The translations under genes and the position numbers were made by a program. Shown here piece by piece: positions 78 to 15,243 of a DNA stretch of 64,000 nt (the first letter of the stretch is position 1; every line of letters begins with the position of its first letter). This DNA comes from a virus. The stretch spans positions 32,001 to 96,000 of IMG/VR virus record IMGVR_UViG_3300032291_003679; one strand, written 5' to 3'. The notes below the pieces were generated by a model. The model searched no databases. It had not been told where the DNA came from and worked only from the letters and a program-made list of their open reading frames with translations.

Positions 78-120
78 TCTTTCCAGCGCTGTCCCCACCC
101 TCGCATGGTCGGGGACTTAC

Positions 121-288
121 CTACACCTTCCTCTCTCGGAGTTCTCGGTATTGCTCTGCGAGGTCTTCCATAACAACTCGGGCACATGCGCCACAGAGTT
201 GCTGGGAGACGCCCTCACAGGTGCAGTCGGGGGGAATCGGGAACTCGCCCGAATCGTCAGGAATCGGGGTGTTGTGAATCGCTCGCAT
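121..288 (-). CDS. small Cys-rich hypothetical protein (55 aa, CxC..CxxC)
   Basis: ATG at 288 overlaps the upstream TAA (TAATG coupling). The TAG stop lies inside a Box A 13-mer. Confidence 0.6.
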   Translation of the reverse strand: MRAIHNTPIPDDSGEFPIPPDCTCEGVSQQLCGACARVVMEDLAEQYRELRERKV

Positions 289-788
289 TAGAACGCTCCT
301 TCCTTGTCGGCGAGGAACTCCTCGTAACGCTCTGCGTCTGTCTTGTGCTCCTCGGAGACCCACTCGTGACCGTTGGAGCAACGCCAACCAACATCAACGC
401 CGTTACGAAGAATGGGCTCAACTTCTCCGTGACAAGGAACAATGCTCCACAAGTCGGAAGGCTGGTCGGGCTCGGGATTGCCCGAAGGGACTTCCACTTG
501 CCAGTCGCACAGTGGAGTCCAACCAACTGAATCGCAACGGAATGTCGTTCCGTCTACTTCCACTTCATCACGAACCGAAAGCGCCGTGTGTGTTCGGTTG
601 TCCCACAGGAGAGGCTCAATGATGTCCCACAGCGAACCGTTGTATGTGTTCGTGTCGTGGAACACTCGCTCGCAAATGGCAAGCGCTGAATCTTCCGTGT
701 CTAGGTCAAACTCAACCGATGTGATGTATTCGTTATGAATCACTGATTCTCCGAATGCCTTCCATGTGACTTTGATGTGCTTCTTCAT
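288..788 (-). CDS. hypothetical early protein (166 aa)
   Basis: Start MKKHIKV at 788 follows an AAAGGGG RBS and conserved promoter P1. The longer track ORF runs through regulatory DNA. Confidence 0.7.
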   Translation of the reverse strand: MKKHIKVTWKAFGESVIHNEYITSVEFDLDTEDSALAICERVFHDTNTYNGSLWDIIEPLLWDNRTHTALSVRDEVEVDGTTFRCDSVGWTPLCDWQVEVPSGNPEPDQPSDLWSIVPCHGEVEPILRNGVDVGWRCSNGHEWVSEEHKTDAERYEEFLADKEGAF

Positions 789-830
789 TGGTGTGTCCCC
801 TTTGTTGTTGGTGGGCTGCTGCCCACAAGC

Positions 831-857
831 AATGTACCACGCACGGTTCAGACTTCC
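831..857 (-). promoter_or_regulatory. conserved phage promoter P1
   Basis: GGAAGTCTG-N9-TGGTACATT upstream of ORF 288-788. Confidence 0.8.
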
Positions 858-904
858 GAGGGTTACCTGCCGTTCTCCCCCGTTTCCGTGCCGTGTGCCG
901 AGCA

Positions 905-944
905 GGGGAGCCCCGTCGGTTGTCGCCGACTTTCGCGGGGCTCC
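905..944. repeat. Box B hairpin between divergent promoters P1 and P2
   Basis: GGGGAGCCCC...GGGGCTCC; the reverse complement resembles 33-78. Confidence 0.75.
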
Positions 945-992
945 TGCCCCCAGCGAGAACCTCTGGCACGGGTGGGTTCGGCAGGTAAGTGT

Positions 993-1019
993 GGAAGCCT
1001 GCCCCACGAGTGGTATCGT
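993..1019 (+). promoter_or_regulatory. conserved phage promoter P2
   Basis: GGAAGCCTG-N9-TGGTATCGT upstream of the ParA-like gene. Confidence 0.75.
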
Positions 1020-1059
1020 TTGGCAGGCCAACAAGGGCCGTACCTGAAAGGGGTATCCA

Positions 1060-1680
1060 ATGAAAGTAATAGAAGTAAGCGCACGAAAGGGTGGGGTCGG
1101 CACAAGCACTGTGGCCGTATCGCTCGCCGTTGCTCTCTCGCAGGCCAAGCCCAAGAGCGTTCTGTTGGTGGACACTTCACCAAACTCGGACACATGGGCT
1201 ATCGCAGGAGCCTCTACTCCTGTCGGCCCAAAGAAGTCCAGCACCACGCTCGGAGAGCATGAACTCTTGCTCATCAAGACAGGTGGCAACACTCTCGCCA
1301 CCTTGGAACACGATGACCTGTTCTCATTTGACTTCGTCGTTATTGACGCAGGCCTTTCACCAGCCTCTCACTACTTCGGCGAGACACCATTCCGTGTGTC
1401 CGTCGTGAACAACTCGTATCTCTCGCTTCGTGCGCAGGCGTTCACAGGTGGCCTCTACGCCGATGGGATTGTGTGCGTTCATAACGACGGCTTCGTTCTG
1501 AATGAGAAAGATGTCAAGAGTGTTCTCGGTGGTCGTTTCGTTCACTACTTCGGAGTGGACAACGCTGTTGCTCGTGCGATTGACGCAGGCCTCTACGCCA
1601 CATCACGCACCAACCTGTTCGCAGATTGGACAGGCTCGTTCATACAGTTTCACGAACTCGTAGAGCCTTCCAAAGTCTGA
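1060..1680 (+). CDS. ParA/MinD/CpaE-like P-loop ATPase (degenerate)
   Basis: Deviant Walker A RKGGVGTST, plus VLLVD and FVVIDAG motifs. Confidence 0.75.
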   Translation: MKVIEVSARKGGVGTSTVAVSLAVALSQAKPKSVLLVDTSPNSDTWAIAGASTPVGPKKSSTTLGEHELLLIKTGGNTLATLEHDDLFSFDFVVIDAGLSPASHYFGETPFRVSVVNNSYLSLRAQAFTGGLYADGIVCVHNDGFVLNEKDVKSVLGGRFVHYFGVDNAVARAIDAGLYATSRTNLFADWTGSFIQFHELVEPSKV

Positions 1681-1706
1681 CCAACTAGGTGTAGGTAAGT
1701 CTCACG

Positions 1707-1733
1707 GGAAGTCTGAACCGTTGGTGGTACATT
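1707..1733 (+). promoter_or_regulatory. conserved phage promoter P3
   Basis: GGAAGTCTG-N9-TGGTACATT, directly after Box A at 1688. Confidence 0.8.
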
Positions 1734-1777
1734 CCTTCTGTCGGCAGGACCGTCTTGCCGACAGAAAGGGGCCACCA

Positions 1778-1969
1778 GTGGCACAGTTCATAATCACCGA
1801 GTTTCCGAGAGGCTCACGCAAGGCAAACGCCCAGTGGGAGTTCGCAACTCGTGCCGAGGCCGAGGCCTTCCGAGACGCAAAGGTAGCCGAGGGCAACGAG
1901 AGCGTGTCCTACCAACTCGCTCACCGTGACCGACCAGCAGGCCTAGCAAACCTGCTTCGCCGTCAATAG
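1778..1969 (+). CDS. hypothetical protein (63 aa)
   Basis: GTG start after AAAGGGG RBS, downstream of P3. Confidence 0.6.
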   Translation: MAQFIITEFPRGSRKANAQWEFATRAEAEAFRDAKVAEGNESVSYQLAHRDRPAGLANLLRRQ

Positions 1970-1984
1970 CCGACAGGCCGACAG

Positions 1985-2022
1985 ACTTACCTACACCCTC
2001 ACGGCAATGGGTGTAGGTAAGT
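1985..2022. repeat. Box A palindrome: 14-bp arms with 10-bp spacer TCACGGCAAT (copy 1)
   Basis: ACTTACCTACACCC-TCACGGCAAT-GGGTGTAGGTAAGT. Confidence 0.9.
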
Positions 2023-2132
2023 GGCTGACGGGGCACGGCTTGGGGGTGGGAGCCCCGGTGGGGGCGCTGGGCGTAGCGGGGCTTCTCCCCTCAAAAGCGT
2101 TCGTGAACACGGGTGGCACGGCAGGTGAGTCG

Positions 2133-2159
2133 GGAAGTCTGACCCATGGGTGGTACATT
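2133..2159 (+). promoter_or_regulatory. conserved phage promoter P4
   Basis: GGAAGTCTG-N9-TGGTACATT. Confidence 0.8.
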
Positions 2160-2189
2160 GTGTGTATCACCAACAAGAAAGGGATACCG

Positions 2190-2375
2190 ATGAACGAGCC
2201 AATCAATCACACAGAAACAGACTGGGACGCCATTCTCGCAGAAGAGGCTCTCGCCGAACAGGCGTTTGAGGAACTTGCTGCTTTCGGAGAAGGCGCGACA
2301 ATCGTGAATGTTCTGACTGGCGAGCGCTGGACAGCAGGGAAGCGTCAGCGTCCAACAACAAGAAAGAAGGCATGA
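2190..2375 (+). CDS. hypothetical protein (61 aa)
   Basis: ATG after AAAGGGA RBS, downstream of P4. Confidence 0.65.
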   Translation: MNEPINHTETDWDAILAEEALAEQAFEELAAFGEGATIVNVLTGERWTAGKRQRPTTRKKA

Positions 2376-2728
2376 GAGAAATGAGCGAAGCACTCACTAA
2401 CTACTGGAACGACGTAGAGGAGGCAGTCAAGGGCTCACGCCTCATCGCGTGGGACACCTGCCACAAAATCTACATCGCGATGGACGAAGAGCAGGTTGAC
2501 TGGTTCAGCGAACACTACGCCCCCAACACGTTCACGGGGACAGCGAACGAAATGCTCGCAACGCTTCGTCAGTGGTACAGCGACTCGTGCCCACTGAAGT
2601 TCATCTCAGCCGTGACCACGAACCACGAAGACCCGAACGCAGGATTTGAGAGCCTCATTCCTCAGGGTGCTGAATGGGAAGATGAAGAAGACGAAGACGA
2701 AGACGACTACGAAGACGAAGAGGTGTAG
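2372..2728 (+). CDS. hypothetical protein with acidic C-terminal tail
   Basis: ATGA overlap with the previous gene; stop lies inside Box A. Confidence 0.75.
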   Translation: MREMSEALTNYWNDVEEAVKGSRLIAWDTCHKIYIAMDEEQVDWFSEHYAPNTFTGTANEMLATLRQWYSDSCPLKFISAVTTNHEDPNAGFESLIPQGAEWEDEEDEDEDDYEDEEV

Positions 2729-2735
2729 GTAACTC

Positions 2736-3074
2736 ATGGCGACCGAAACAACACCCGATGAGTTCGCCCTCATGGACTCACGCAATGCGTTCGCGTGGAA
2801 CCTGCTGACCGAACTGCGCGAGCGTTCCACGAACCCCGAGGTCGTGGAGGCTTCCGAGATTCTGCTCGCGAACATCACCGACCCGACCGACTACGCCGTC
2901 ATCGTGTGGGCGAATGAGGACGACCTCTGTTCGTTTGACGAGACCGAGTGGGGAACGGACGAGAACGGTTATTGGAGCGACTGCTACGAGACCCCTCTCG
3001 TGTGGTGCGACCGACAGGACGAGCACTCGCTCATCGTCTGGTACTCAGCGAAGTACGGAGAGACAGAGGTGTAG
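2736..3074 (+). CDS. acidic hypothetical protein
   Basis: Start immediately follows Box A; stop lies inside the next Box A. Confidence 0.7.
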   Translation: MATETTPDEFALMDSRNAFAWNLLTELRERSTNPEVVEASEILLANITDPTDYAVIVWANEDDLCSFDETEWGTDENGYWSDCYETPLVWCDRQDEHSLIVWYSAKYGETEV

Positions 3075-3085
3075 GTAAGTCCCCC

Positions 3086-3123
3086 ACTTACCTACGCCCT
3101 CACGGCAATAGGTGTAGGTAAGT
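3086..3123. repeat. Box A palindrome with the same TCACGGCAAT spacer (copy 2)
   Basis: ACTTACCTACGCCC-TCACGGCAAT-AGGTGTAGGTAAGT, a direct repeat of 1985-2022. Confidence 0.9.
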
Positions 3124-3270
3124 CGGCTGACGGGGTGGGAGCCCCGGCTGACGCCCTCACTTTGTTCGGTTGTCCTCGGCAGCAATGAAGGGAAGCAGGC
3201 GGGGCTCTTTGATGAAGTAAACCCCCTGACCTCTTTCGAGGGGGGGGTTACCTACACCTATCGGACTTAT

Positions 3271-3555
3271 CTACTTTCTTTCTAGTTCTCGCTCGGCCTC
3301 TTCGAGGTTGTCTGCGTGGAAGATGTCAGAGCATCCGTCTGGCAGCGTTGTGACAACGATGTACTCGGTGATGTTGAGAAGTTCTGTCCGATGCTCTCCG
3401 ACGGCCTCAACCTCGGCAACTCGCTTCCACAATGCCTTGCTGCCGTTCGTTATCAGGATGCTCTCATCACCCGTGTAAGTCCCAATGAACTCTAAGGATA
3501 CATCGGCTGCCTTAGCCCATTCCTCTGCCTCGAACCATTCGCTGAACTGTTTCAT
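3271..3555 (-). CDS. hypothetical protein
   Basis: AAAGGGG RBS, downstream of P5. Confidence 0.7.
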   Translation of the reverse strand: MKQFSEWFEAEEWAKAADVSLEFIGTYTGDESILITNGSKALWKRVAEVEAVGEHRTELLNITEYIVVTTLPDGCSDIFHADNLEEAERELERK

Positions 3556-3583
3556 TTGCTGCCCCTTTCACTTGGCTGCCATA

Positions 3584-3610
3584 ACAGTACCACAGCAGGT
3601 ACAGACTTCC
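3584..3610 (-). promoter_or_regulatory. conserved phage promoter P5
   Basis: GGAAGTCTG-N9-TGGTACTGT, preceded by Box A at 3615. Confidence 0.8.
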
Positions 3611-3802
3611 CAAGACTTACCTACACCTACTAGCAGGCGTGACCTGCACGGCTTTGACTTACCTGCTGCCCTTCCCGTGTTGTTCTCTGCGACCTCGCTC
3701 TTCTCCCCTTCGGGGAGCCCCGTTTATTTTGGTTGCTTGCAAACGGGTCAGTACGGCAGGTAGCATTTCGTCATCAAGCCACATCACCTCAAGGAGAGAA
3801 CA

Positions 3803-4126
3803 ATGGCAACACCAAAGAAGAAACCAGTCGTAAAGAAAGCTCCGGCCAAGAAAAAGCCTGCAGCCAAGAAAGCCGTAGCGAAGAAGACCCCAGCGAAGAA
3901 GACCCCAGCAAAGAAAGCTCCTGCCAAGAAGACTGCAGCCAAGAAGGCATCGCCGGCAAAGAAGGGCACGCTCCCTCGTAAGAGCGCAAAGACAACCACA
4001 AGTGCTGCAACTGCTACTTCCACGACTTCTGTCACTTCACGTGTGAAGATTATCCCCATCACCAAGACCAGCGTTACCTCCACTGTTTCGGGTGCGAAGG
4101 TTACCTACAAGGTTAAGAAAAAGTGA
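3803..4126 (+). CDS. histone H1-like Lys/Ala/Pro-rich DNA-binding protein
   Basis: Tandem PAKK/AAKK repeats; AAGGAG RBS. Confidence 0.8.
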   Translation: MATPKKKPVVKKAPAKKKPAAKKAVAKKTPAKKTPAKKAPAKKTAAKKASPAKKGTLPRKSAKTTTSAATATSTTSVTSRVKIIPITKTSVTSTVSGAKVTYKVKKK

Positions 4127-4398
4127 AAGAAATAACTCGGCAAGAAATCTCCGACATGTTTGAGGACATGGGGGAATCTGCGCTATTGATGGATGGATTC
4201 GAAAGTGCGTTCATCGGGCACAGCCAAAGAATCAACGAGCCGGTTCTCGCCGTCTACTCGAGGGCCAAGATGGTGGAAGTCCTTATGTCCCGTGACGGGA
4301 TGACAGACGACGAAGCAGAAGAGTTTATCGAATACAACTGCGTTGGTGCGTGGGTAGGGGAACAGACGCCAATCATTGTCAACGACTTCTTGGTTTAG
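4123..4398 (+). CDS. conserved phage hypothetical protein
   Basis: DGFESAFIG...AVYS...GAWVGEQTP pattern typical of a widespread small phage family. Confidence 0.7.
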   Translation: MKEITRQEISDMFEDMGESALLMDGFESAFIGHSQRINEPVLAVYSRAKMVEVLMSRDGMTDDEAEEFIEYNCVGAWVGEQTPIIVNDFLV

Positions 4399-4602
4399 TC
4401 GACTTTTCGACTAAGGGCAACAAGACCGGCGAGGGCCCTTGCGCAAACGCCGTGAGCTCGCTGCTTCAGAAACAGGGACAGCACGCGTCCGAAAAGATTT
4501 CTTCTCTTTGCCTTGTTCTTCTGGCTTCTTCTTTTCGTCCATAGACCCATTTTCCCACATTTTGCCAAACTAGACGGGGAGGTGTAGGTAAGTCGAAAGG
4601 TG

Positions 4603-4803
4603 CTAAAAAAGTGGAATGTCTGCGCTTGGAGCCTTAGAGGCGCAGAACTCATGCTTGTATTCATGAAGCTCCTCAACAACACGATTGACTGTCTTGCCGT
4701 TCGACTTCAGCCATACGATGGTTTTACGTTCTACCGTATTGTCTCCAGGGCGAAGCGAAAGTCCACAGATAGAGCAGGTGAATAGTGGTGGCAATCCAGC
4801 CAT
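4603..4803 (-). CDS. small Zn-finger-like protein (CxxC...HxxC)
   Basis: GGAGGG RBS; CSICG...HEFC. Confidence 0.5.
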   Translation of the reverse strand: MAGLPPLFTCSICGLSLRPGDNTVERKTIVWLKSNGKTVNRVVEELHEYKHEFCASKAPSADIPLF

Positions 4804-4884
4804 GTCAGTCCCTCCCTCGTGGGGATTTCTTTAGAAGTAGATAAGTAAGCAAGAGCACTGCCAGTCCAAGGAAAGCGCTGCAAC

Positions 4885-5070
4885 TCACTTTCGCCAGTCC
4901 CTTACGAAACCGTCCATGTAGTTCTCCATGGCTTCGTCTGTGCCACACTCAGAGCAGATTTCCGTCTTGTTATCAAGGCGCGAAATAGCCCCCGGGTATG
5001 CCCCCGGCATTTCGTTGTTGGGAATAAATCCCTCACAACGGGGACAAATGTGCTTTGTCGCTGTGTGCAT
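4885..5070 (-). CDS. small Zn-ribbon protein
   Basis: CPRC...SRLDNKTEICSECG; AGGAG RBS. Confidence 0.65.
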   Translation of the reverse strand: MHTATKHICPRCEGFIPNNEMPGAYPGAISRLDNKTEICSECGTDEAMENYMDGFVRDWRK

Positions 5071-5254
5071 TGTTTCTCTCCTGTGTCTAGGTACATGAGG
5101 AATAATAGCCCCACTTATGGAATCTTGCAACAGTTTGCTGCAGCAGGTCATTATGTGACTAGTATGTGCCTAGGACCGGTGGGGCTCGCGCAACCTCTCT
5201 CCTTTCGGTACATCCCCAGTGCGAGCCTCGCCGGTTTCTACTATTCTAGAAACA

Positions 5255-7171
5255 ATGAGGTTGTACCTAGATAAGAATGAGATAGTGCTGGACTTTCCCT
5301 ACGACCAGCATCAGGTTTCCGAACTGAAGCAGATTCGTGGAGCACGGTGGGATAAGCAGACGAAGTTGTGGCGTGTACCTATTACGTCTCTTGCAGAGGC
5401 ACGTGAGTTTGCTATCAAACATGAGTTCGACGTAACAATCGACGTACTTACATTCAGTGCCCCCAAGCCACGCACCGGCACAGCGAAGGTGTACCTCGAT
5501 GAAGACATGATTGCTGTTCGTGTTCCGTACGAACGCGTCATAGTAAAAGCAGTGAAACAGATTCCGGCAGTGTCGTGGAATGCGAAGAAACATTATTGGC
5601 AGGCACCAGCGTCATCTGTTCTCAATGTAATGGAGTGGGCAGAGAAGTTCGAAGTACCCGTAGAGCCCGAAGTATCTGCGATGTCGAGCGAAGTTACTGC
5701 ACGCATGAATCAGTTCATTGAGGCATCACGCTCAACAGAGGCAGAGATAGAGATACCTACACTCCAAGGAGAACTGCTGCCATACCAGCGCGCAGGTGTT
5801 GCCTACGCATCGAGTGCCAAGCGCACATTCATTGCTGACGACATGGGATTAGGCAAGACGCTGCAATCAATAGCAACGCTCGAATACGTGTGGGATTCGT
5901 ATCCTGCTGTTGTCGTGTGTCCTCCAAGTCTTGTACTCAACTGGGTAGCAGAATGGAATCGATGGCTTCCGAACAGAAGAATCGCTCACGTGACGAACCG
6001 AAAGGATTTCCCTGAACGTGGTTCGTATGACGTCGTCATTGTTGGATACAGCAACATTGCTCATTGGGAGAAGAGACTCGCCGGCCATCGTGCTTACATC
6101 TTCGACGAGAGCCACTATGCGAAGACTCCAACTGCACAGCGCACAAAGGCAGCAGTGAAGATGGCAAAGTCTGCGCACAAAGATGGAATAGTTTTGTGCC
6201 TCACTGGAACACCCGTGACTAACCGACCAAACGAATACGCATCACAGTTAGAGATTCTCGGTCGTCTCAAAGACTTCGGAGGACTATGGGGTTTTTATCG
6301 TCGTTATTGTGCTGCGTATCAAGACAACTTTGGACAATGGAACATCAGTGGCAACTCACATCTCGATGAACTAAACGAAAGACTGCGTGGCACGTGTTAC
6401 ATACGTCGAACAAAAGACCAAGTTCTATCAGAGTTGCCACCCGTAATACATAGTCGTGTTCTTGTCGAAGGAAGCTCGACAACGATGAAAGAATACGTCA
6501 AAGCAGAGAAGGACATTCTTCTTTACATCGCAGAGAGAGCACGTCAACTCGCTCTCGAACAAGGAAAGCCATCGTATGGAGCAGCGATTGCAGCGATGAT
6601 TCGTGCAGAAGCAAATGAGCATCTTGTACGACTATCAGTACTGCGCAAAATTGCAGCAAAAGCAAAAATGGAAGTAGCAGAGGAATGGATAAATGCGCGT
6701 ATCGAGAATGGTAAGAAAGTCGTTGTCGCTGCTCACCACCGTGACATCGTTGATGAACTCGCTCGTAAATACGGCAATCTTCGAATTCAGGGTGGCATGT
6801 CGGTCGAAGAGGTGGAAGAGAATAAGCGTCGCTTTCAGACCGAGAGCGTGGAAAGCGCACCTGTCATTGTTCTTTCGATTCAGGCTGCAAAAACGGGACA
6901 CACACTAACAGCAGCAGAGGAATGTCTATTCTTGGAACTTCCGTGGACGCCTGCTGATGTTGACCAAACTTATAGTCGGCTCCATCGTCTTGGACAAAAA
7001 GGCAGCGTAACGGCGACTTACATGTTGACGTCAGGAACGATTGATGAGGAAATCTATGAAATCATCGAAGCAAAGCGTTCTGTTGTAGACGCAGCAGTCG
7101 AAGGTGGAAGTGTAGGTAACTCTGACTTGTCTACAAAGATGATTATGAGTCTGCTCGACAAACTTGCTTAG
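5255..7171 (+). CDS. SNF2-family (SMARCAL1/HARP-like) helicase/annealing ATPase
   Basis: ADDMGLGKT, DESH, LTGTP and SRLHRLGQ motifs. Two N-terminal HARP-like repeats (GARWDKQTKLWRVP, AVSWNAKKHYWQAP). Confidence 0.9.
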   Translation: MRLYLDKNEIVLDFPYDQHQVSELKQIRGARWDKQTKLWRVPITSLAEAREFAIKHEFDVTIDVLTFSAPKPRTGTAKVYLDEDMIAVRVPYERVIVKAVKQIPAVSWNAKKHYWQAPASSVLNVMEWAEKFEVPVEPEVSAMSSEVTARMNQFIEASRSTEAEIEIPTLQGELLPYQRAGVAYASSAKRTFIADDMGLGKTLQSIATLEYVWDSYPAVVVCPPSLVLNWVAEWNRWLPNRRIAHVTNRKDFPERGSYDVVIVGYSNIAHWEKRLAGHRAYIFDESHYAKTPTAQRTKAAVKMAKSAHKDGIVLCLTGTPVTNRPNEYASQLEILGRLKDFGGLWGFYRRYCAAYQDNFGQWNISGNSHLDELNERLRGTCYIRRTKDQVLSELPPVIHSRVLVEGSSTTMKEYVKAEKDILLYIAERARQLALEQGKPSYGAAIAAMIRAEANEHLVRLSVLRKIAAKAKMEVAEEWINARIENGKKVVVAAHHRDIVDELARKYGNLRIQGGMSVEEVEENKRRFQTESVESAPVIVLSIQAAKTGHTLTAAEECLFLELPWTPADVDQTYSRLHRLGQKGSVTATYMLTSGTIDEEIYEIIEAKRSVVDAAVEGGSVGNSDLSTKMIMSLLDKLA

Positions 7172-8911: not shown

Positions 8912-9418
8912 ATGTTCCCAGCATCTATCCACCAAGCACTCACAGGCGAGGCGACCACCGACCTCGGTAACGGGGCATACTCTGTGGGGCAGGTTCCCAC
9001 AGAGGCAGAGGCGTTCGTCAAGTCGTACGAGCCATGCGAAAACTCACCCGTCCATACCGTCCCCACCGACCCAACTGTCGTCACGCTCGCCGAGGTGACC
9101 ACCTACCTGCGCCTCGTTGCCGAAGGTACAAGCAAGGACGCAGGATTTGCAGGGAGCCTCGTGGCATACGCCGAGCGCACGGGAACGCTCACCGAGAAGC
9201 AGGCGAAACACGCTCGCCGACTCTACGCTAAATGGCACCGTGCCTGCGAGTGGCTCGCTCGCCACAAGAACGGACAGCACGCGTGGAAGTACGCAGGGAC
9301 AAAGTGTCACAACAGCAACTACGACCTCGGCACCTACGCCGAAACCTCGTACTACCAGTGCGAGCAGTGTGGGAAGTGGAAGTCGCAGTACACGAACAAG
9401 AACTACTCGGGGGACTGA
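8912..9418 (+). CDS. hypothetical protein with C-terminal H..CxxC motif
   Basis: AAGGAG RBS, follows P6, and is followed by Box A at 9427. Confidence 0.7.
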   Translation: MFPASIHQALTGEATTDLGNGAYSVGQVPTEAEAFVKSYEPCENSPVHTVPTDPTVVTLAEVTTYLRLVAEGTSKDAGFAGSLVAYAERTGTLTEKQAKHARRLYAKWHRACEWLARHKNGQHAWKYAGTKCHNSNYDLGTYAETSYYQCEQCGKWKSQYTNKNYSGD

Positions 9419-9450
9419 CCCGAAGAGGTGTAGGTAACCCAAGACGGACA

Positions 9451-9512
9451 GCCCCCACCCCACGCCCCCACCCCACGCCCCCACCCCACGCCCGAACACC
9501 CACGCCCCCACC
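9451..9512. repeat. C-rich tandem repeat (CCCCACGCCCCCA)n
   Basis: About four 13-nt units; runs of 4-5 G on the minus strand. Confidence 0.85.
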
Positions 9513-9639
9513 TGCCTCCGAGAGCAGAGGGCAAGCCGAGCGAAGCGAGACGGGAGAAAGCGAGGAACCAAGCGGGGCTCCTACCCCAATGACGGTGCAT
9601 GGGTGCATACACGGGTGGGCACGGCAGGTAGTCCGATTT

Positions 9640-9666
9640 GGAAGTCTGAACCGTTAGTGGTACATT
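9640..9666 (+). promoter_or_regulatory. conserved phage promoter P7 (leaderless transcript)
   Basis: GGAAGTCTG-N9-TGGTACATT; ATG lies 6 nt downstream. Confidence 0.8.
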
Positions 9667-9672
9667 TATGGC

Positions 9673-10881
9673 ATGACCGAAGTTTCATCTGCCTCAATCG
9701 CCTTTGACCTGCACACGCGATACTTGGAATATCGCAAGAGCCACCCAACGATGGACAGGCTCTTACATCTCGGATACTTTCGCGCCATGTGGGCAGACGA
9801 CGATACGCCTATTCTGACCCGTGAGGCATTAGAGAGCGAAGCAAAAATGGGCGCAGTTCATCACGAAGTACATCGCGCACTAGACGACACAATCATCGCA
9901 CTCGGTGACACCGTGTTTCTCACTGACGACTTGCGTGAGTTGGTCAAGACGGCAGAAGTAACAATGCCTGATGAGGTGTTATTTGAGACGGACATTTTCA
10001 CCCCGTGTGGATTCATCGTGATGGAGACTCCACTGCCACAAACGGTGAAGTCGCTTATCAAGGCCGAAGATTTTGACGAAGTGCTAACACTCTCAAAAAA
10101 GTACGGCGCAATCATCACTGGAACGCGCAACGACACTGAACCTGACGAAGATGGAAACTATGTAGGCGTAGAGAACTGGGAAGTGCAGGCGTTTGCATGG
10201 GCTGACGCGAGCGCAATAACACCCGAAGCACTTTCGGAAATAGAGAGACGGTTTGGGAAAGACAGCAACGAGTACGCCTTCGCTCAAAACATTTCTAAGA
10301 ACTCAGGAAATGACAGTGCCATTCAGGTGCGTGTTTTCGGAACTCTTATCTCTACCACTGTCAATGGGCTAACGATAGAAGTTCCACAACTACACCTTGC
10401 CCCTTTACGACTAATGGATATGTACGCGTTCTTCTACGGCGAAGATGGAATGGAAATAGAACGCGAAGTAAGTGGTGTAGGTAACTTTTCAGAGGCCGAC
10501 CTGAACGAGTCCTCATGGGAACGAAGCAGAGAAGTGCGCCGATTTCTTGTTGCTCTGTTCCGTCTCATGGACGAGTATGTGGACATTGACAGGCACGGCC
10601 TGCATCGCGCTTTCGGAAAGCGAGCAACCCGTGGTGGCCGAACAGGTGACACGAAGAATGTCACGATTCTCTCACTGCGTCGTGCGCTCGGTGATGATGA
10701 AGAAGGAATCGGTGCAGGAGCGAAGGTGACGCTCGCGCATCTCGTCCGTGGCCACTGGCGCAATCAGTGGTATCCATCACAGAAGATGCACCGTGCGAAA
10801 TGGATACGCGCACACCGTCGTGGTGGCAGTGCTGGTGATGAAGTGACTGCACGGCCTCGCATCATCAAGGTGGACAGATAG
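9673..10881 (+). CDS. hypothetical protein with C-terminal VRGHWR motif
   Basis: 402 aa; HLVRGHWRNQWYPS...WIRAH pattern seen in actinobacterial phage/plasmid proteins. Confidence 0.8.
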   Translation: MTEVSSASIAFDLHTRYLEYRKSHPTMDRLLHLGYFRAMWADDDTPILTREALESEAKMGAVHHEVHRALDDTIIALGDTVFLTDDLRELVKTAEVTMPDEVLFETDIFTPCGFIVMETPLPQTVKSLIKAEDFDEVLTLSKKYGAIITGTRNDTEPDEDGNYVGVENWEVQAFAWADASAITPEALSEIERRFGKDSNEYAFAQNISKNSGNDSAIQVRVFGTLISTTVNGLTIEVPQLHLAPLRLMDMYAFFYGEDGMEIEREVSGVGNFSEADLNESSWERSREVRRFLVALFRLMDEYVDIDRHGLHRAFGKRATRGGRTGDTKNVTILSLRRALGDDEEGIGAGAKVTLAHLVRGHWRNQWYPSQKMHRAKWIRAHRRGGSAGDEVTARPRIIKVDR

Positions 10882-10888
10882 AACCTGT

Positions 10889-10937
10889 GGACTTACCTAC
10901 ACCCGTAGCAGGCTCGCTATCAGGTGTAGGTAAGTCC
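10889..10937. repeat. Box A inverted pair (15-bp arms, 19-nt spacer) between convergent genes
   Basis: GGACTTACCTACACC...GGTGTAGGTAAGTCC. Confidence 0.9.
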
Positions 10938-10947
10938 GTTGGCCGTA

Positions 10948-11139
10948 TTAGTCTCGCGTTGGCGTGATTGCGAAACTGACTGAACGCTCGTCGTTGCGAG
11001 TCTCTGGAAAGTAGAACGCAAGACCGAGCCACGCTTGCGCTTCTCGCTTGCTGGCGAAGCCCGTGGCCTCAACCGTTGAGCGAGAGCGTCCGTTCGCGAG
11101 AACGGCAACGCGTGTGATGGTGAATGTGGAATGTGCCAT
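10948..11139 (-). CDS. hypothetical protein (63 aa)
   Basis: AAAGGGG RBS, downstream of P8. Confidence 0.6.
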   Translation of the reverse strand: MAHSTFTITRVAVLANGRSRSTVEATGFASKREAQAWLGLAFYFPETRNDERSVSFAITPTRD

Positions 11140-11169
11140 GATGAACCCCTTTCGTTCGGCAACACACAC

Positions 11170-11196
11170 AGAGTACCACCGATGGAACAGACTTTC
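11170..11196 (-). promoter_or_regulatory. conserved phage promoter P8
   Basis: GAAAGTCTG-N9-TGGTACTCT. Confidence 0.8.
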
Positions 11197-11378
11197 CAAA
11201 AGTGCATGATTACCTACACCTATTCGGCGCAACACTCGCACTCTATGCGAGGACAACCGAACGAAGTGAGGGCGTCAGCACCGGGGCTCCCACTCTCCAA
11301 CCATGCATAAGCACCGTGCCGAGACTTACCTACACCTAGTAGATGAGTGCCGACACGGTGAATACGCCGTGTACCGAA

Positions 11379-12083
11379 TCAGTATGCGTGTGGCGCGTCT
11401 ACTTCCATAGGTGCACGACACACATGACAGAGTGGGGACTCTGAACCGTCCTCACCGAATAGAGGTGTTTCGTCATCAGCGAGCGAGTACCCATGAGACT
11501 GCGAAAGCATTTCACCGTAGTTGCATTCCACTGAATGTTCTTCATCGTTCGGGCAAGTGAGCGAGTAGTTTGCGTTGTCGTATGGGAACGACTCTGCCAT
11601 GTCTACCGTGACACGGAATGCACGAGGACGCGTGTAGCCACCACGAACATCGCAACCCCCGTGAATCTGCAAGAGCACGAACACTTCACCACCGTCCGAG
11701 AATGTCACGCCCTGCAATGTCTGCGCGAGTGAGTCCTCTCCGTTGTATGTGTTCCATGTGTGTGCACTGTCGTCCTTTTCTGTTGCGAACTCTTGTGCGA
11801 GACCGAGCCACCCGTCATCAGGGTTCTCTTCACAGAACGCACGGAACTGCTTGTCCAAGAGTGGTGCATACTCCAATCGTTCTGAAAGGTAGTGATAGAC
11901 CGAGAGCGTCACGCCCCACTTGTCTGCCCATGCGCGAGGTTGCGCGTCCCACTCTGCGAGTGTGCGACCTGCGTTCTGTTCCCAGTGTCTCCCGTAGGCT
12001 CCACCACTGTCCAAGATGTGTCGTCCCGTAGGCTCCGTGAGCATTTCTGCGATTACTTCGCGTGTGCGTGTTGTTGTCTTCAT
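11379..12083 (-). CDS. conserved phage hypothetical protein
   Basis: LDSGGAYGRHW and QIHGGCDVRGGYT motifs; start follows Box A. Confidence 0.8.
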   Translation of the reverse strand: MKTTTRTREVIAEMLTEPTGRHILDSGGAYGRHWEQNAGRTLAEWDAQPRAWADKWGVTLSVYHYLSERLEYAPLLDKQFRAFCEENPDDGWLGLAQEFATEKDDSAHTWNTYNGEDSLAQTLQGVTFSDGGEVFVLLQIHGGCDVRGGYTRPRAFRVTVDMAESFPYDNANYSLTCPNDEEHSVECNYGEMLSQSHGYSLADDETPLFGEDGSESPLCHVCRAPMEVDAPHAY

Positions 12084-12397
12084 GACTTACCTACACCCTT
12101 GTAAGGGTATGACGGGTGTGCCCGTCGCCCCTTGTGGCGAAGTGTGGCGATTTCGTTGCGTGACCACAGCGTGAGAAGTGTGCTGACAATCGTGCCAACA
12201 ATGGTGACGAACAATCCTGCGAAAGTATCGTACGCAGTGTGACTCCAATAAGAGAGAACAACAAGGTACGCACCAAGCGTGGTCACGAGATACGAAGCCC
12301 CCGTGATGAATCGGTAGATGAATGTTGGATAGTTGTCGTCCAACCAGTTAGTAGCCCGTGCGTCTGCTCGGTCTAGTTTGTCAATAATGTTTGCCAT
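12080..12397 (-). CDS. small membrane protein (2 TM)
   Basis: Two hydrophobic segments; AAAGGGA RBS; C-terminal GVGKS is encoded by Box A. Confidence 0.7.
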   Translation of the reverse strand: MANIIDKLDRADARATNWLDDNYPTFIYRFITGASYLVTTLGAYLVVLSYWSHTAYDTFAGLFVTIVGTIVSTLLTLWSRNEIATLRHKGRRAHPSYPYKGVGKS

Positions 12398-12430
12398 GTG
12401 GATTCCCTTTCCGTTTGAGTTGGCAAGATG

Positions 12431-12457
12431 AGCGTACCACAGTGGGGACAGACTTTC
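12431..12457 (-). promoter_or_regulatory. conserved phage promoter P9
   Basis: GAAAGTCTG-N9-TGGTACGCT. Confidence 0.8.
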
Positions 12458-12568
12458 CGACCTACCTGCCGTGCCTCCCCGATGTGGCGAGGGGTGGGAT
12501 ACTTCCCCTGCTGGGAGCCCCGTTGTTTTTGACTCTTCTGTCATAACAGACACGAGTCGGTGACTTAC

Positions 12569-12826
12569 CTACACCTCGTCATCACCACGCAGGTAGTTGG
12601 CACGCATCACTTCCGTGCTGGCCTCACCTGTTTGGTCAAGCGTCGTGATGTCGTACACAGCACCACAGCGATAACACAGGTACGAAAAACCGTCCCATGC
12701 ACCCGTGGCGTCGGGGGCGATTATCTCTCCTGTTGGGAGACACGAGTAGAAGCCGTCGATGTCAGGTTCATTACCACATTCACAGACGAGCCAGTCTGCT
12801 GTAGTGCGTTCGAGATTGAGTGTCAT
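12569..12826 (-). CDS. Zn-ribbon hypothetical protein
   Basis: CECGN...CYRCG; stop lies inside Box A. Confidence 0.7.
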   Translation of the reverse strand: MTLNLERTTADWLVCECGNEPDIDGFYSCLPTGEIIAPDATGAWDGFSYLCYRCGAVYDITTLDQTGEASTEVMRANYLRGDDEV

Positions 12827-13302
12827 GATGGTTCCTCTTGATGGGTGATGGAAGATACATCATAGGGGTTTTCTTCAGGGTCGTCATGCCACACGCCATC
12901 AGGCCATGCAGTACGTGTGTGTACTCCATGAACGTTCTTGCCGAAGATGTCAGTGGCCTGCCATGCATGTGTGCAACACGGCACTGGGGTGTCTCGTGAG
13001 TCAGGGTGACAGTTCTGTCCAATGTCTTGAGCGAGTAGAGGGAACGTAGCGAGGAACTTGGCAACACAGTCATGACAAAGAATCCATTCACGTGTACGCA
13101 GGCTTCCTGTCAGTACACGAACGTTGTCATCGAATCCACCGTAGTAGCCGAATGTGTCAAAGGGTAAGACCCAACCATTGTCAGGGTATGACTCCTGTTG
13201 TGTACACGGCACTGATGCACAGCATGCTGAACATCGTGCGTGCTTGACGACTGGTGTAGATGGTGTGATGAATGGTGACTGTGTGTCAGGCGTATCGCTC
13301 AT
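12823..13302 (-). CDS. Cys/His-rich hypothetical protein
   Basis: CSACC, CHDC and CC motifs; leaderless from P10. Confidence 0.7.
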   Translation of the reverse strand: MSDTPDTQSPFITPSTPVVKHARCSACCASVPCTQQESYPDNGWVLPFDTFGYYGGFDDNVRVLTGSLRTREWILCHDCVAKFLATFPLLAQDIGQNCHPDSRDTPVPCCTHAWQATDIFGKNVHGVHTRTAWPDGVWHDDPEENPYDVSSITHQEEPS

Positions 13303-13309
13303 GCGAGAA

Positions 13310-13336
13310 AGAGTACCAGTATGGGGACAGACTTAC
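13310..13336 (-). promoter_or_regulatory. conserved phage promoter P10 (leaderless)
   Basis: GTAAGTCTG-N9-TGGTACTCT; ATG lies 7 nt downstream. Confidence 0.75.
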
Positions 13337-13396
13337 AACGTACCTGCAGTGCAACCCATGAGACGCCCGTGGCACTTGCGTCGTTCATGCTGATGG

Positions 13397-13762
13397 TCAG
13401 GTGACGATGTGTCCTGATGTCATGCGATACAGCACTGCGTAGCAGAAGCGTCTGCGCTGTGTGATGCTCCACTCCACCTGATAACGATGGTGTCTGTTGA
13501 GCATGTCGATGTCTGCCTGCGAACGGTGTATGCCTAGTTCCATCTCTGTCTCTATCATGATGGACATGATGTTCACCTCACTACCCGTGGCACTGCGAGG
13601 CGTCACACCTGCCTCTCGGCACGCCTGAAACACCTTGGTCATGAACATCGAGCATGCGAGCATGTGCTCAAGCTCTTCATCGTCAGTGAGGTAGTCATTG
13701 GTCAAGCGTGATACACGAATGGCCTGATGTACCTTGCGCTTAGGTATGTAGATGCCTGACAT
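13397..13762 (-). CDS. hypothetical protein
   Basis: 121-aa ORF; TACCCT -10-like hexamer 6 nt before ATG. Confidence 0.55.
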   Translation of the reverse strand: MSGIYIPKRKVHQAIRVSRLTNDYLTDDEELEHMLACSMFMTKVFQACREAGVTPRSATGSEVNIMSIMIETEMELGIHRSQADIDMLNRHHRYQVEWSITQRRRFCYAVLYRMTSGHIVT

Positions 13763-13798
13763 GAGGCAAGGGTATCACTCACTAGGTGAGCGTGTCCC

Positions 13799-13972
13799 CT
13801 ATCCCCATTTGATTTCTTTCGTCTGTTTCTCTTGGGGCTCTACTGCTACTACATCAAGCATGCTCCCCTGATTGAGTAGAGAGTGAACCATTGAGATTGC
13901 TTCGTCAATGTTCATTGGGGCGTCAAGGTCACTGCGCTTACGCACTGCGACGGTGATTCTGTATGTATCCAT
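13799..13972 (-). CDS. hypothetical protein
   Basis: ATG directly after the upstream stop. Confidence 0.5.
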   Translation of the reverse strand: MDTYRITVAVRKRSDLDAPMNIDEAISMVHSLLNQGSMLDVVAVEPQEKQTKEIKWG

Positions 13973-13974
13973 GC

Positions 13975-14184
13975 TTAGCACCATACAGCCTTCCATAGTC
14001 GCGCAACGCTTTGTGCTTGCTGAGGTGATTGACAAGGGATACGTCTGATGGTGTGTTGCGTCCCCTCTGATGAGGGTAGGGACAACCACACCTCCACGTC
14101 ATCACCAATGGCATTGACGTGAGTGACTGTCCCCTCTGATGAAAGGTCAGTGATGTGAGAGGTGAGTAGGTCTAGTGATGTCAT
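13975..14184 (-). CDS. hypothetical protein
   Basis: TACTGT 7 nt before ATG. Confidence 0.55.
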   Translation of the reverse strand: MTSLDLLTSHITDLSSEGTVTHVNAIGDDVEVWLSLPSSEGTQHTIRRIPCQSPQQAQSVARLWKAVWC

Positions 14185-14274
14185 GAGGGACACAGTACAT
14201 CAGGGGTGGTACATAGTCAATGGGGTGACGATGATGTGGGGTAGCGATGTTCAGGGGGGTATGGTGTTACTCGT

Positions 14275-14481
14275 ATGACACCCGTGACACCTCGCAAACA
14301 TTCACGCTCTCACTCACCTATGGCACGCCTATGGCAAGGGTGGTGCGACCTCTATGACAAGTGGTGGTCACGATGGTCACGATGGAGCAATGGCATAGGG
14401 CTTGACCCCTTTCCTCTCGCAATCGCAATCGGGTGTGTGGTGATGGCACTGCTCACACTGCTGTCTATTGGTCGTGTGTAG
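14275..14481 (+). CDS. small membrane protein
   Basis: Trp-rich segment and C-terminal hydrophobic helix. Confidence 0.45.
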   Translation: MTPVTPRKHSRSHSPMARLWQGWCDLYDKWWSRWSRWSNGIGLDPFPLAIAIGCVVMALLTLLSIGRV

Positions 14482-15243
14482 TACACCCGTGGCCCCCTGC
14501 GATTGACCTTACCTACACCTCAGGCGAACAGGTACGGCTTGACCTACTGGCCTTGCGCTTGTGGCATAGACGACACGCTTGCTTGCCTCATACATTGCGA
14601 GCATCACGCTATGCGCTTGCCTCACTAAGACATACGTCATTGGTAAACGATTGACGCTTGTCTGTTGTCTGCTTTGATTGGGCTATGTGCTTTCGCATAG
14701 CGTCAAGCACAACTCGGACAGTGCTCTCGCATAAGTCGTATGACCCACAGAACCCGAGAACCCGAAGGACCCGAAAACCCGAAAGGCATTGCGCTGACCT
14801 TGCTTGTATGAAAGGCAACGACGAACGACCAACGCACTTCGTGTGCGTGCGTCATTGAGTGGTGAGAGCAGGGGTATGTGTGTGTTTCTCTGTGTAGACA
14901 AGACACTGCTAGGGGCGAGACGAAGGGTGGCGTTTGGTTGTGACGTTCGCCTTCGCTGTGCTCCTCTATTGACGAGATACCTGCTGTGCTTCCCCACTCT
15001 TGGCTCTGCTCTGCTTGCTTCGTTCTGTCCACAGTGGTCGACGATTGACACGGTCACGCCTCTGTCCACAGAACTGACCATCGACGCCACCAGAGAGAAG
15101 GCACCCCCTTGGAGCCCCGCCGGCTTTCAGTCGAACCCCCAGCGCCGGGGGGAGCTAAAAATCAAATTTTTATGGCCACCTTTTTTTATCTTAATTTATC
15201 CAAACCGCTTGTGTTCGTCCCCAGGGCTGTGTACTATGTGCTC

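Follow-up and report, generated by a model that had tools for sequence, protein, structure and literature searches.

An oriented 13-letter word marks about 80 places among small, putatively early genes of an uncultured lake phage and is coupled to a conserved promoter

The DNA studied here comes from an uncultured 158-kb lake phage in which one oriented 13-letter word marks ~80 places among small genes that are probably early, judging from gene size, promoters and composition. The window (the whole 64-kb stretch that was analysed) covers only the right third of this array. It holds 13 exact matches, with 0 expected from 100 shuffles, and 23 matches with up to two mismatches (0.64 expected), of which 22 lie at 115-14519 and one, at chance level, at 38645. 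These numbers bear out an earlier note on this DNA, which had claimed 13 exact and 9 near-exact copies at 115-14519 and essentially none in the rest of the window, and the array proved larger than claimed. In the whole genome, 47 exact copies, 70 with at most one mismatch and 80 with at most two fall at 11.7-46.5 kb, and only three two-mismatch matches lie outside. The word is thus confined to one island rather than spread uniformly, its true extent being 11.7-46.5 kb of the genome and not the 14.5 kb described earlier. The extended site reads A-N2-A-GGTGTAGGTAA(G/C)T-C; its edges are sharp (-4 to +14 across the 80 copies) and the flanks show no conservation at any fixed distance. The copies in the window are:

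115-127, minus: exact; its TAG is the stop of gene 121-288 (minus; protein end RKV), with a CGGGGCTCC palindrome 38 nt downstream
1688-1700, plus: exact; the ParA-like gene 1060-1680 ends 8 nt before it, and promoter P 1707-1733 lies 6 nt downstream
1985-1997, minus, and 2010-2022, plus: exact inverted pair with a 12-nt spacer, behind gene 1778-1969 (plus); predicted hairpin of -26.1 kcal/mol
2722-2734, plus: one mismatch (AACT form); its GTG-TAG closes gene 2381-2728 (EEV), and gene 2736-3074 has its ATG 1 nt further on
3068-3123: triplet, plus, minus and plus at 3068, 3086 and 3111; the copy at 3068 contains the stop of gene 2736-3074 (TEV), and the first two copies form a 13-bp hairpin with a 5-nt loop
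3246-3258, minus: two mismatches; gene 3271-3555 (minus) ends 13 nt before it
3615-3627, minus: exact; 4 nt upstream of promoter P 3584-3610 (minus)
4581-4593, plus: exact; at a strand switch; the plus-strand genes upstream of it end at 4398, and convergent gene 4603-4803 (minus) ends 10 nt away
7109-7121, plus: two mismatches; within the SNF2 helicase gene, ~50 nt ahead of its stop
8760-8772, plus: one mismatch; heads a cassette of palindrome (8777), shortened word and promoter P (8843-8869)
9427-9439, plus: two mismatches; gene 8912-9418 ends 9 nt before it, and a C-rich 13-nt tandem repeat comes after it at 9451-9512
10474-10486, plus: one mismatch; within the 402-aa gene 9673-10881
10891-10935: exact inverted pair between convergent genes ending at 10881 and 10948; predicted hairpin of -33.7 kcal/mol (z -6.4)
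11208-11220, minus: two mismatches; 11 nt upstream of promoter P 11170-11196 (minus)
11324-11336, minus: exact; gene 11379-12083 (minus) ends 43 nt before it, and a palindrome arm comes after it
12085-12097, minus: exact; its open frame supplies the last residues, GVGKS, for gene 12080-12397, and gene 11379-12083 has its ATG 1 nt further on
12563-12575, minus: exact; GTG-TAG end of gene 12569-12826 (DEV), with a palindrome ~40 nt downstream
14507-14519, minus: one mismatch; final copy of the array

Sixty-six of the 80 sites lie outside called genes, although the island is 72% coding. Single copies point with local transcription, as had been proposed: 43 of the 49 unpaired words are on the strand of the nearest gene, the remaining six are at strand switches or beside doubtful ORFs, and orientation flips along with gene direction three times across the array. 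The two exceptions named earlier, at 4581 and 14507, are found at a strand switch and next to doubtful small ORFs. A long same-strand frame ends at -20 to +11 in 46 of 78 sites (59%), versus 14.5% at random nearby positions. Since the word carries stop codons (TAG, TAA) in two of three frames, any reading frame that enters it in one of these is closed there, and its description as written into gene ends is in part a matter of course; even so, there is an excess of stops that lie strictly before the word (22% versus 10%). The four genes that take GTG-TAG from the word, the GVGKS C-terminus, the gene-internal copies at 7109 and 10474 and the ATGs that follow the copies at 2722 and 12085 were all recovered as the note had them. 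At the helicase end, where the stop overlaps the convergent gene and leaves no 3' spacer, the word is found inside the gene. Genome-wide, four words lie 1 nt ahead of the ATG of a downstream cistron without a promoter of its own.

The word is physically coupled to a conserved class of extended -10 promoters, an addition to the earlier interpretation. This promoter, P, consists of GGAAGYCTG, 9 nt and then TG-N-TA-N3-T. In 13 of the 24 P copies the 13-mer ends 2-11 nt, mostly 2-4 nt, upstream of GGAAG, on the -35 side, and nine further copies have in its place a shortened word, CGGC-AGGTA(A/G) with an ACGGG-type sequence ahead, which keeps the 3' half AGGTAAGT. The 13-mer or its 3' half therefore lies directly upstream of the weak -35 in 22 of 24 P copies, and the coupling is also present in three relatives. 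The window contains ten P copies between 831 and 13336, together with shortened words (863-12471) and palindromes (40-12522):

993-1019, 1707-1733, 2133-2159, 8843-8869 and 9640-9666, plus: promoter P
831-857, 3584-3610, 11170-11196, 12431-12457 and 13310-13336, minus: promoter P
863-872 (minus), 979-988 (plus), 9622-9631 (plus) and 12462-12471 (minus): shortened word
Ahead of promoters P at 2133, 8843 and 13310: weaker copies of the shortened word
3754-3763, plus: shortened word without P downstream
40/69, 907/936, 2049, 3138, 3714, 8777, 9573, 11282 and 12514: arms of the CGGGGCTCC palindrome, terminator-like, between cassettes

Eight of the ten P copies have, within ~25-45 nt downstream, a ribosome site of GAAAGG/AAAGG type with a start codon (ATG or GTG); the P copies at 9640 and 13310 have no called leader of this kind. 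A cassette starts with the word and the palindrome, continues with the shortened word or the word, the promoter and the gene, and closes with another word. Ordinary signals show no excess over chance within the island: 3 canonical sigma-70 promoters against 8.1 expected, and 14 hairpin-plus-U terminators against 12.8 expected.

Related phages have the same promoter P, but their word is GAGTAGATAA(C/G)T; one relative (G001) has 95 copies of GTAGATAA(G/C)T, all of them at 92-131 kb. Among 2.9 million viral contigs, word and promoter co-occur only in the same 12 related contigs and this genome. Orthologous gene-internal sites changed with the lineage word, altering the encoded residues, and the lineage B orthologues of the sites at 7109 (helicase) and 10474 contain the lineage B word. 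This concerted change beside an unchanged promoter points to a lineage-specific reader and agrees with the proposal of a phage-protein site, as with Cluster A stoperators (PMC6550527). Gene conversion can also homogenise array repeats, so the concerted change alone is no proof of a co-evolving reader. Among candidate readers, the DNA-reading parts do not differ between the two word types in three HTH proteins (HA-sigma4, Cro-like and 222-aa), in either WhiB protein or in one RHH protein; of the readers named in the note, RHH 22959-23123, HTH 37330-37998 and both WhiB thus do not track the word. The RHH protein at 37023-37346 gave a weak DUF6290 match in a Pfam search, and a screen of 65 proteins yielded no convincing candidate for the word reader.

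Judged by its placement and by the separate versions in related phages, the 13-mer most likely serves as a docking site for a phage protein that regulates early transcription. We tentatively favour, with a probability of roughly 0.45, a stoperator-like operator and polar block for early-gene control outside the Cluster A family. The sites with their extent, orientation and positions, the promoter link and the concerted change are observations; protein binding, a negative effect and the polar block are what we infer. A sequence-specific factor belonging to the phage lineage, most likely a phage-made protein or one delivered with the phage DNA, would read the word and control transcription of the early gene island. 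As the word ends mostly 2-4 nt upstream of GGAAG, a bound protein would abut the -35 zone and could gate initiation, in the lytic cycle most plausibly as early-gene shut-off. Behind stop codons and between cistrons, an oriented bound site may hinder RNA polymerase from reading on, so that each small gene would become a separately closable unit. The logic would be that of the L5 operators and stoperators, serving timing instead of lysogeny. The block must be conditional because of the four words 1 nt before the ATG of promoter-less cistrons, whose genes a constant terminator would silence. Many gene-end copies lie just upstream of a terminator-like palindrome, where a block seems redundant, and the variable distance to P (2-11 nt) also speaks against this reading. 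The earlier suggestion that a phage protein shuts off or punctuates early transcription at the word thus fits its asymmetry and its intergenic, transcription-oriented positions at gene ends, but not those proposed readers that were compared between lineages.

The coupling to P might instead reflect a positive promoter part. The word would then help the extended -10 promoters as an upstream element or activator site, recognised by an activator of the phage or by an RNA polymerase alpha subunit that the phage has modified, or it would be a compact promoter in its own right that serves a later, phage-redirected polymerase. The word or its 3' half at 22 of 24 weak -35 regions, the like arrangement in relatives and the restriction of word and promoter to the same contigs all speak for such a part, and in T4 the Alt protein modifies the alpha subunit, to the advantage of early promoters with upstream elements. 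We nevertheless judge it unlikely: ~65 of the 80 copies have no P downstream, the spacing to P is not fixed, neither flank of the word shows conservation at a set distance, and the four copies 1 nt from an ATG leave no room for a start site and leader. Neither a T7-type polymerase nor sigma region 2 was detected, the negative for the polymerase being weak, as that search matched no control genome either. The sense orientation, which is the rule, and the position of the word between stop codon and palindrome in at least 12 units would also suit an element acting in RNA, in 3' untranslated or inter-cistron regions, where a nuclease or RNA-binding protein ends the life of early messages, or as a hairpin arm that stabilises or terminates transcripts. 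Some 30 words form inverted pairs with 5-35 nt spacers, which fit RNA hairpins better than protein dimers; these pairs and four triplets fold to -20 to -34 kcal/mol with variable loops, and where an ATG comes next, the word looks like a ribosome-binding site in its 5' part. Action in RNA is very unlikely all the same, given single copies without a pairing partner, the 13 promoter-upstream copies that lie behind a palindrome and would be transcribed only by read-through, no Rfam family match, and lineages B and C, which keep their copies even though the 5' part of their word is a poorer ribosome site.

It is quite unlikely that the word is chiefly the conserved border of a regulatory cassette that occurs many times, with recombination between the cassettes keeping it uniform and small genes being swapped there, an idea that can coexist with a regulatory role. 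The repeated cassette order and the precedent of PeSL cassettes (PMC2839356, PMC4122927) favour it, genes absent from relatives (for example 8912-9418 and 3271-3555) are flanked by a promoter on one side and a word on the other, and homology breaks are three times commoner near the word than at random positions. Breakpoints nevertheless fall within 20 bp of the word in 27% of cases versus 28% for any gene boundary, which leaves the recombination anchor of the earlier note without specific support; moreover, homologous exchange would have little to work with in 13 nt, the phage lacks tyrosine and serine recombinases, and the concerted change of gene-internal copies points to selection on the word itself. 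A site unrelated to transcription (a centromere-like array for the ParA-like ATPase, a DnaA-type decoy, or a DNA entry or nicking mark) could draw on the ParA-like gene in the island with a copy directly behind it, on six occurrences of direct repeats spaced 19-21 nt and on the reverse complement of the word, which matches seven of nine positions of the classical DnaA box. Such a match is expected by chance given the number of known motifs compared, a ParB was not noticed, a signal for replication, entry or nicking should not flip with gene direction three times, and the links to promoters and stop codons would go unexplained, so this function is extremely improbable.

The preferred reading, a stoperator-like operator, has its closest parallel in the operators and stoperators of mycobacteriophages of Cluster A (L5 gp71, Bxb1, TipsytheTRex), which are reported for Streptomyces phage R4 and its relatives as well (PMC9283540, PMC6550527, PMC10276819). 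Cluster A sites are asymmetric oriented 13-mers that occupy promoters as well as short gaps between genes, and they vary among relatives together with the repressor (PMC9283540, PMC6550527). Shared with them are an asymmetric, multi-copy 13-mer oriented with transcription, its positions at promoters, short gene gaps and stop or start codons, and a consensus that differs among related phages. The sequence differs, there are 80-95 copies here versus ~25-35 in Cluster A, they occupy one 35-kb island of a 158-kb genome rather than both arms, and the site abuts the -35 zone from upstream, whereas the Cluster A site overlaps it. This phage further has many inverted pairs, no integrase, no detected prophage copy and no identified two-domain repressor. 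With no integrase and its sites confined to one island, it does not have a Cluster A-type immunity system as defined.

PeSL cassettes, in which an early promoter is combined with a stem-loop in T4-type phages, have a role in indels shown from phage pairs (PMC2839356, PMC4122927). They too are short, composite promoter-terminator cassettes that recur in a large lytic myovirus among small and variable genes of early type, with the variable genes bounded by cassettes. Unlike the arrangement here, they consist of a host-type early promoter and a hairpin without a separate oriented 13-mer; breakpoints here favour the word no more than they favour gene boundaries, and hosts and sequences are unrelated. 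The SAS and extended SAS of Cluster K are likewise asymmetric one-orientation 13-mers among non-structural genes of actinobacteriophages, with inverted repeats nearby, but they lie almost always immediately upstream of start codons (PMC3203893), as do only 4 of 80 words here. Most 13-mers here, unlike SAS, follow stop codons or precede promoters. The C1 operators of P1, a large myovirus not known to encode an integrase, are asymmetric words in many scattered copies, single or paired, that control many separate units. In these respects they resemble the present array; they are 17-mers, ~20 in number and spread over the whole genome of a plasmid prophage, whereas here 80 copies of a 13-mer are gathered in one island.

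The 13-mer occurs in 13 exact copies in the window, where none is expected, and 23 matches with up to two mismatches were found against 0.64 expected; 22 of these lie at 115-14519 and one, at chance level, at 38645. The 13 exact and nine near-exact copies at 115-14519 counted in an earlier note on this DNA were thus reproduced. The same note confined the word to 14.5 kb, and the copies do form a clustered array, but the window shows just the right third of it. In the whole 158,021-bp IMG/VR phage record, of which the window is bases 32001-96000 and the ends of which overlap by 121 bp, there are 47 exact copies, 70 with at most one mismatch and 83 with at most two. All but three of the 83 (80/83) fall at genome positions 11.7-46.5 kb, the remaining three being two-mismatch, chance-level matches. 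The 70 copies with at most one mismatch are divided between the minus strand (50) and the plus strand (20). The word is non-palindromic, and a count matrix of the 80 sites revealed a conserved stretch from -4 to +14 that is composed of A, two free positions, A, the 13-mer and C; position 12 of the 13-mer is G in 57 sites and C in 22. Beyond this stretch, no conservation was evident at any fixed distance, on either side, in this matrix. Likeness to the DnaA box (7 of 9) was dropped as chance-level, as was likeness to the RfaH ops element, the sigma-28 -10 box and the eukaryotic 5' splice-site consensus.

The array occupies an island of small genes, mostly without family assignment, that are set apart by repeated cassettes; Pfam and PHROGs searches of ~45 proteins left most island proteins as orphans. 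The main neighbour of the 13-mer is a promoter-like element, P, which consists of GGAAGYCTG, nine free bases and TG-N-TA-N3-T (an extended -10), with invariant spacing and no canonical -35.

genome 17187-45336: promoter P, 24 copies
window 831-13336: promoter P, ten of these copies

A GAAAGG/AAAGG-type ribosome site and a start codon are located ~25-45 nt downstream of ~20 of the 24 copies. Directly upstream of GGAAG, at a gap of 2-11 nt, 13 of the 24 carry the 13-mer, while nine carry instead a CGGC-AGGTA(A/G)GTC repeat that is preceded by ACGGG-type sequence. This second repeat contains the 3' half of the 13-mer, AGGTAAGTC, and its distance to P is the same as that of the 13-mer. Cassette units run from a palindrome or hairpin to the 13-mer and then to P. 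Neither canonical sigma-70 promoters nor hairpin-plus-U terminators are enriched in the island, which appears to run on private signals. As a clue to the host, the promoter pattern gave single chance matches only in bacterial genomes.

The placement of the 13-mer relative to genes was assessed with a simple, crude gene caller trained on the island itself, whose start codons are especially uncertain; by these calls, 66 of the 80 sites lie outside genes, though the island is 72% coding. Unpaired sites lie on the strand of the nearest called gene in 43 of 49 cases, consistent with the earlier statement that single copies mostly follow local transcription, and the two exceptions it listed, 4581 and 14507, are among the six discordant sites, which are found at strand switches or beside doubtful small ORFs. 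Ten sites overlap a stop codon, seven in the GTG-TAG frame and three with a TAG made using the first G, and ten more are located no more than 18 nt behind a stop, for a total of 20 on or just behind stops. The protein C-termini RKV, EEV, TEV and DEV before GTG-TAG, and GVGKS, were recovered as described. As two of the three reading frames of the 13-mer hold a stop codon (TAG, TAA), the ending of a frame within it is partly automatic. However, the association with gene ends is real beyond these built-in stops: frames of 50 codons or more on the same strand end at -20 to +11 of 46 of 78 sites, compared to 14.5% at random nearby positions, and stops strictly upstream of the 13-mer are present at 22% of sites versus 10% of controls. 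At least 12 units are ordered as stop, 13-mer and, 15-60 nt on, palindrome. At the helicase gene, which overlaps a convergent gene with no spacer, the 13-mer lies within the frame itself, no more than 60 nt from its end.

The island is also distinguished by its composition, as its G+C content (window 1-16000) is 50-57% compared to about 45% (range about 41-50%) in window 16001-64000; this step coincides with the end of the array. In addition to the 13-mer and P, the island and its surroundings contain several other features.

window 40-77 and 907-944: CGGGGCTCC palindrome
window 2049, 3138, 3714, 8777, 9573, 11282 and 12514: single arms of the CGGGGCTCC palindrome
genome 10231-25691, all minus strand: TTGACGGTGGTGGAAG, nine copies
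window 1060-1680, plus strand: ParA-like Walker ATPase, 206 aa, of which only the P-loop end matches known families
window 3803-4126, plus strand: 107-aa protein, pI 11.7, net charge +33, with PAKKA-type repeats and then a Ser/Thr-rich end
window 9451-9512: C-rich 13-nt tandem repeat GCCCCCACCCCAC, 4.7 copies, directly after a 13-mer and gene end

The CGGGGCTCC palindrome, with 30 arms in the island, has an 18-20 nt loop and no U run. It is flanked on either side by outward-pointing ACGGG...CGGCAGGTA repeats, with which it forms a ~125-bp module of block symmetry between cassettes. Three of the nine TTGACGGTGGTGGAAG copies are directly upstream of a 13-mer-plus-promoter unit, and in two of the nine TTGACG stands 17 nt ahead of a TA-N3-T hexamer. 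The 107-aa protein, conserved in the related genome G001, resembles histone H1 or the tail of mycobacterial HupB and may be a non-specific DNA binder. The ParA-like ATPase evolves fast, sharing 32-46% identity with the copies of relatives; no ParB was noticed.

Probing viral contigs with the SNF2 helicase yielded 21 related loci. The word of this genome (lineage A) recurs in two contigs whose helicases share 94-95% identity with its own. Contigs with 86% and 91% identical helicases harbor GAGTAGATAA(C/G)T at a density of 20-27 copies per 20 kb, and this sister-lineage word differs from that of lineage A at the same three positions throughout. G001, which is complete at 156 kb, has its core copies concentrated at 92-131 kb (95, against one elsewhere), with a strand pattern as here. 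In the lineages with the changed word, P itself is unchanged, and upstream of it, in most cases at a gap of 3-4 nt, stands either the lineage's own word or an ACGGGG-type repeat terminating in the 3' half of that word. Word and promoter counts agree in four genomes. Two intra-coding sites, at the helicase end and at position 10474 in the gene for a 402-aa protein, are orthologous in lineage B, where both carry the lineage B word with resulting amino-acid changes. The distant relative G005, with a 67% identical helicase, has a different promoter consensus and no 13-mer core; its promoter-like unit contains 29 copies of GGAAACTCCAGCC, with GGTATAGAC ~6 nt downstream. A 14-mer scan of 2.9 million viral contigs gave single chance matches only. 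Among 2.9 million viral contigs, the word-plus-promoter composite and multi-copy P were present solely in 12 contigs of the clade, besides this genome. Neither the composite site nor the inverted pair occurs in 185,579 bacterial and archaeal reference genomes, and DNA searches of public phage records gave no match among cultured phages to the island or to one word-plus-promoter unit; among cultured phages, those of Arthrobacter and Gordonia have the closest helicases, at ~32% identity. These results extend the earlier note in five respects: how large the array is, its coupling to a private class of promoter, the half-site common to the 13-mer and the second repeat, the gene-end rule with its control, and the concerted switch of the word between sister lineages.

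The retention of the word in 80-95 sharp-edged copies, and its change at the same three positions while the promoter stays constant, suggest that it is read by a lineage-specific factor and not by the host polymerase alone. A reader was sought among HTH, WhiB and RHH candidates and in a screen of 65 proteins, and none was found. The genome encodes three HTH proteins, of 124, 74 and 222 aa, and two WhiB-like proteins.

genome 13583-13957, plus strand: 124-aa fusion of a helicase-associated (HA) domain and a sigma-70 region-4-like HTH, bordering the array on the left
genome 8008-8199, plus strand: WhiB-like gene
window 39920-40138, minus strand: WhiB-like gene

The reading parts of the three HTH proteins are identical between lineages or do not track the word type; the HTH of the 124-aa protein is unchanged even in G005, despite the other promoter consensus there. 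The 222-aa protein adjoins the primase gene and had no PDB match to the solved Cluster A repressor. The Cro-like protein is located inside the island; every lineage with the word encodes it, and G005 does not. Small proteins of this type usually read palindromes, and as it is also invariant between lineages we do not propose it as the reader. One WhiB gene is located immediately to the left of the island, and the C-terminal basic tail of its product is unchanged across all compared lineages. The DNA-reading parts of both WhiB proteins and of the RHH protein at 22959-23123 likewise do not track the word type, nor does the reading region of a winged-helix-like 154-aa protein; the RHH protein at 37023-37346 was covered by Pfam search only. 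Thus, the regulators named earlier that were compared across lineages (RHH 22959-23123, HTH 37330-37998 and both WhiB proteins) do not covary with the word. Proteins that are markedly closer between the two same-word genomes are acidic and lack a DNA-binding look. The split-pattern screen of 65 proteins, which has low power since the genomes are mosaics without a dominant tree, returned just two basic proteins near the virion genes with an unconvincing pattern. No further DNA binder emerged from the Pfam and PHROGs searches of ~45 proteins, and sigma region 2 was not detected in the genome. PF00940, the probe for a T7-type polymerase, had no match at E ≤ 1, and control genomes gave none either.

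No other reading accounts for as many of the facts as one in which the 13-mer serves as both operator and polar block. A putative protein docked beside the -35 zone would act as a gate on the promoters and, when bound one-way behind stops and between cistrons, would hinder read-through. The block would be conditional, acting only with the factor present; it cannot be constant because four sites stand 1 nt ahead of the ATG of a downstream cistron lacking its own promoter, and these four cistrons need read-through past a site. No tyrosine or serine recombinase was detected in the genome, and in a phage without an integrase such a conditional block suggests timed shut-off or insulation of the early genes.

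Other explanations of the 13-mer must be weighed against operator and polar block. It could be a positive promoter element or a later promoter, for which its position beside P might speak. Viewed as a housekeeping-sigma promoter, the lineage A word contains no hexamer that fits TA-N3-T and has no conserved sequence at 17 nt upstream, whereas the neighbouring P does satisfy the TA-N3-T and TG-extension pattern. The word could alternatively act as an RNA element, as 31 sites are arranged in inverted pairs or + - + triplets with spacers of 5-35 nt and predicted folds of -20 to -34 kcal/mol. Single copies cannot self-fold and paired copies fold without a U run, which does not fit an intrinsic terminator, and Rfam gave no match to known RNA families; direct repeats show only a weak cluster of spacings at 19-21 nt.

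The 13-mer could also be the edge of a cassette held uniform by recombination, in the manner of the PeSL cassettes of T4-type phages, which the island resembles in placing a composite promoter and stem-loop between small variable genes. In PeSL cassettes, indel and replacement junctions between close relatives fall in the cassette. Here, of 78 HSP ends, 27% fall no more than 20 bp from a 13-mer, compared to 9% for random positions and 28% for all gene boundaries. Breakpoints therefore show no preference for the 13-mer beyond that for gene boundaries, and the earlier idea of a recombination anchor gains no specific support. Finally, the word may serve one or more functions other than transcription, an alternative to be set beside its alignment with transcription and its coupling to P.

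Taking operator and polar block further, we can envisage a lytic-looking large actinobacteriophage that uses a stoperator-type timer and not lysogeny. One lineage-specific protein on ~80-95 oriented sites would close about two dozen early promoters and block read-through behind each small early gene, so that a restriction-site-poor island would be shut off or insulated gene by gene in one step, with the specificities of site and reader having changed together between sister lineages. We hold this scenario tentatively and would give it about three chances in ten.

To our knowledge, oriented many-copy operator words have so far been a hallmark of a few temperate actinobacteriophage groups, in which they silence prophages. 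The present case differs in coming from a 158-kb uncultured lake myovirus without an integrase, with ~3x the density of sites and in an early island only, and further in the tie to a private promoter class and in the existence of two sister word versions among phages that are otherwise alike. If a protein reads the word, the two word types would constitute a natural experiment on a regulator and ~90 sites shifting specificity together, and the system would be a compact orientation-dependent switch and a possible tool in Actinobacteria. Even as a promoter part or an RNA element, the word defines the regulatory grammar of a phage group with no cultured member.

Among known systems, the start-associated sequences of Cluster K phages are immediately upstream of starts, unlike the 13-mer, for which four of 80 sites are within 3 nt of a called start. 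The earlier comparison with the stoperators of mycobacteriophage L5 is apt in its logic, but this phage is not a Cluster A member as defined because its sites keep to a single island, no repressor of that kind was found and nothing indicates lysogeny. Cluster A sites are genome-wide, in early and late operons, whereas those described here are restricted to 11.7-46.5 kb (92-131 kb in G001). The Cluster A repressor is monomeric, with an N-terminal HTH and a stoperator domain, and when bound it halts elongation in one orientation only; here none of the three HTH proteins tracks the word. Cluster A phages are temperate, with an integrase or parABS; here there is no tyrosine or serine recombinase and a ParA-like ATPase without a noticed ParB, and the presence of this ATPase means that the phage may be a plasmid prophage. 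Cluster A genomes contain more than 20 asymmetric 13-mers, at promoters and in short intergenic spaces, that are oriented with transcription, and inversion of a site abolishes its effect (PMC9283540); their motifs vary between relatives together with the repressor (PMC6550527). The array described here is like these in having more than 20 asymmetric 13-mer sites (47 exact, 80 with up to two mismatches), in the orientation of its sites with transcription (43/49 unpaired) and in their location at promoters (13/24 P) and in short intergenic spaces (20 at or behind stops).
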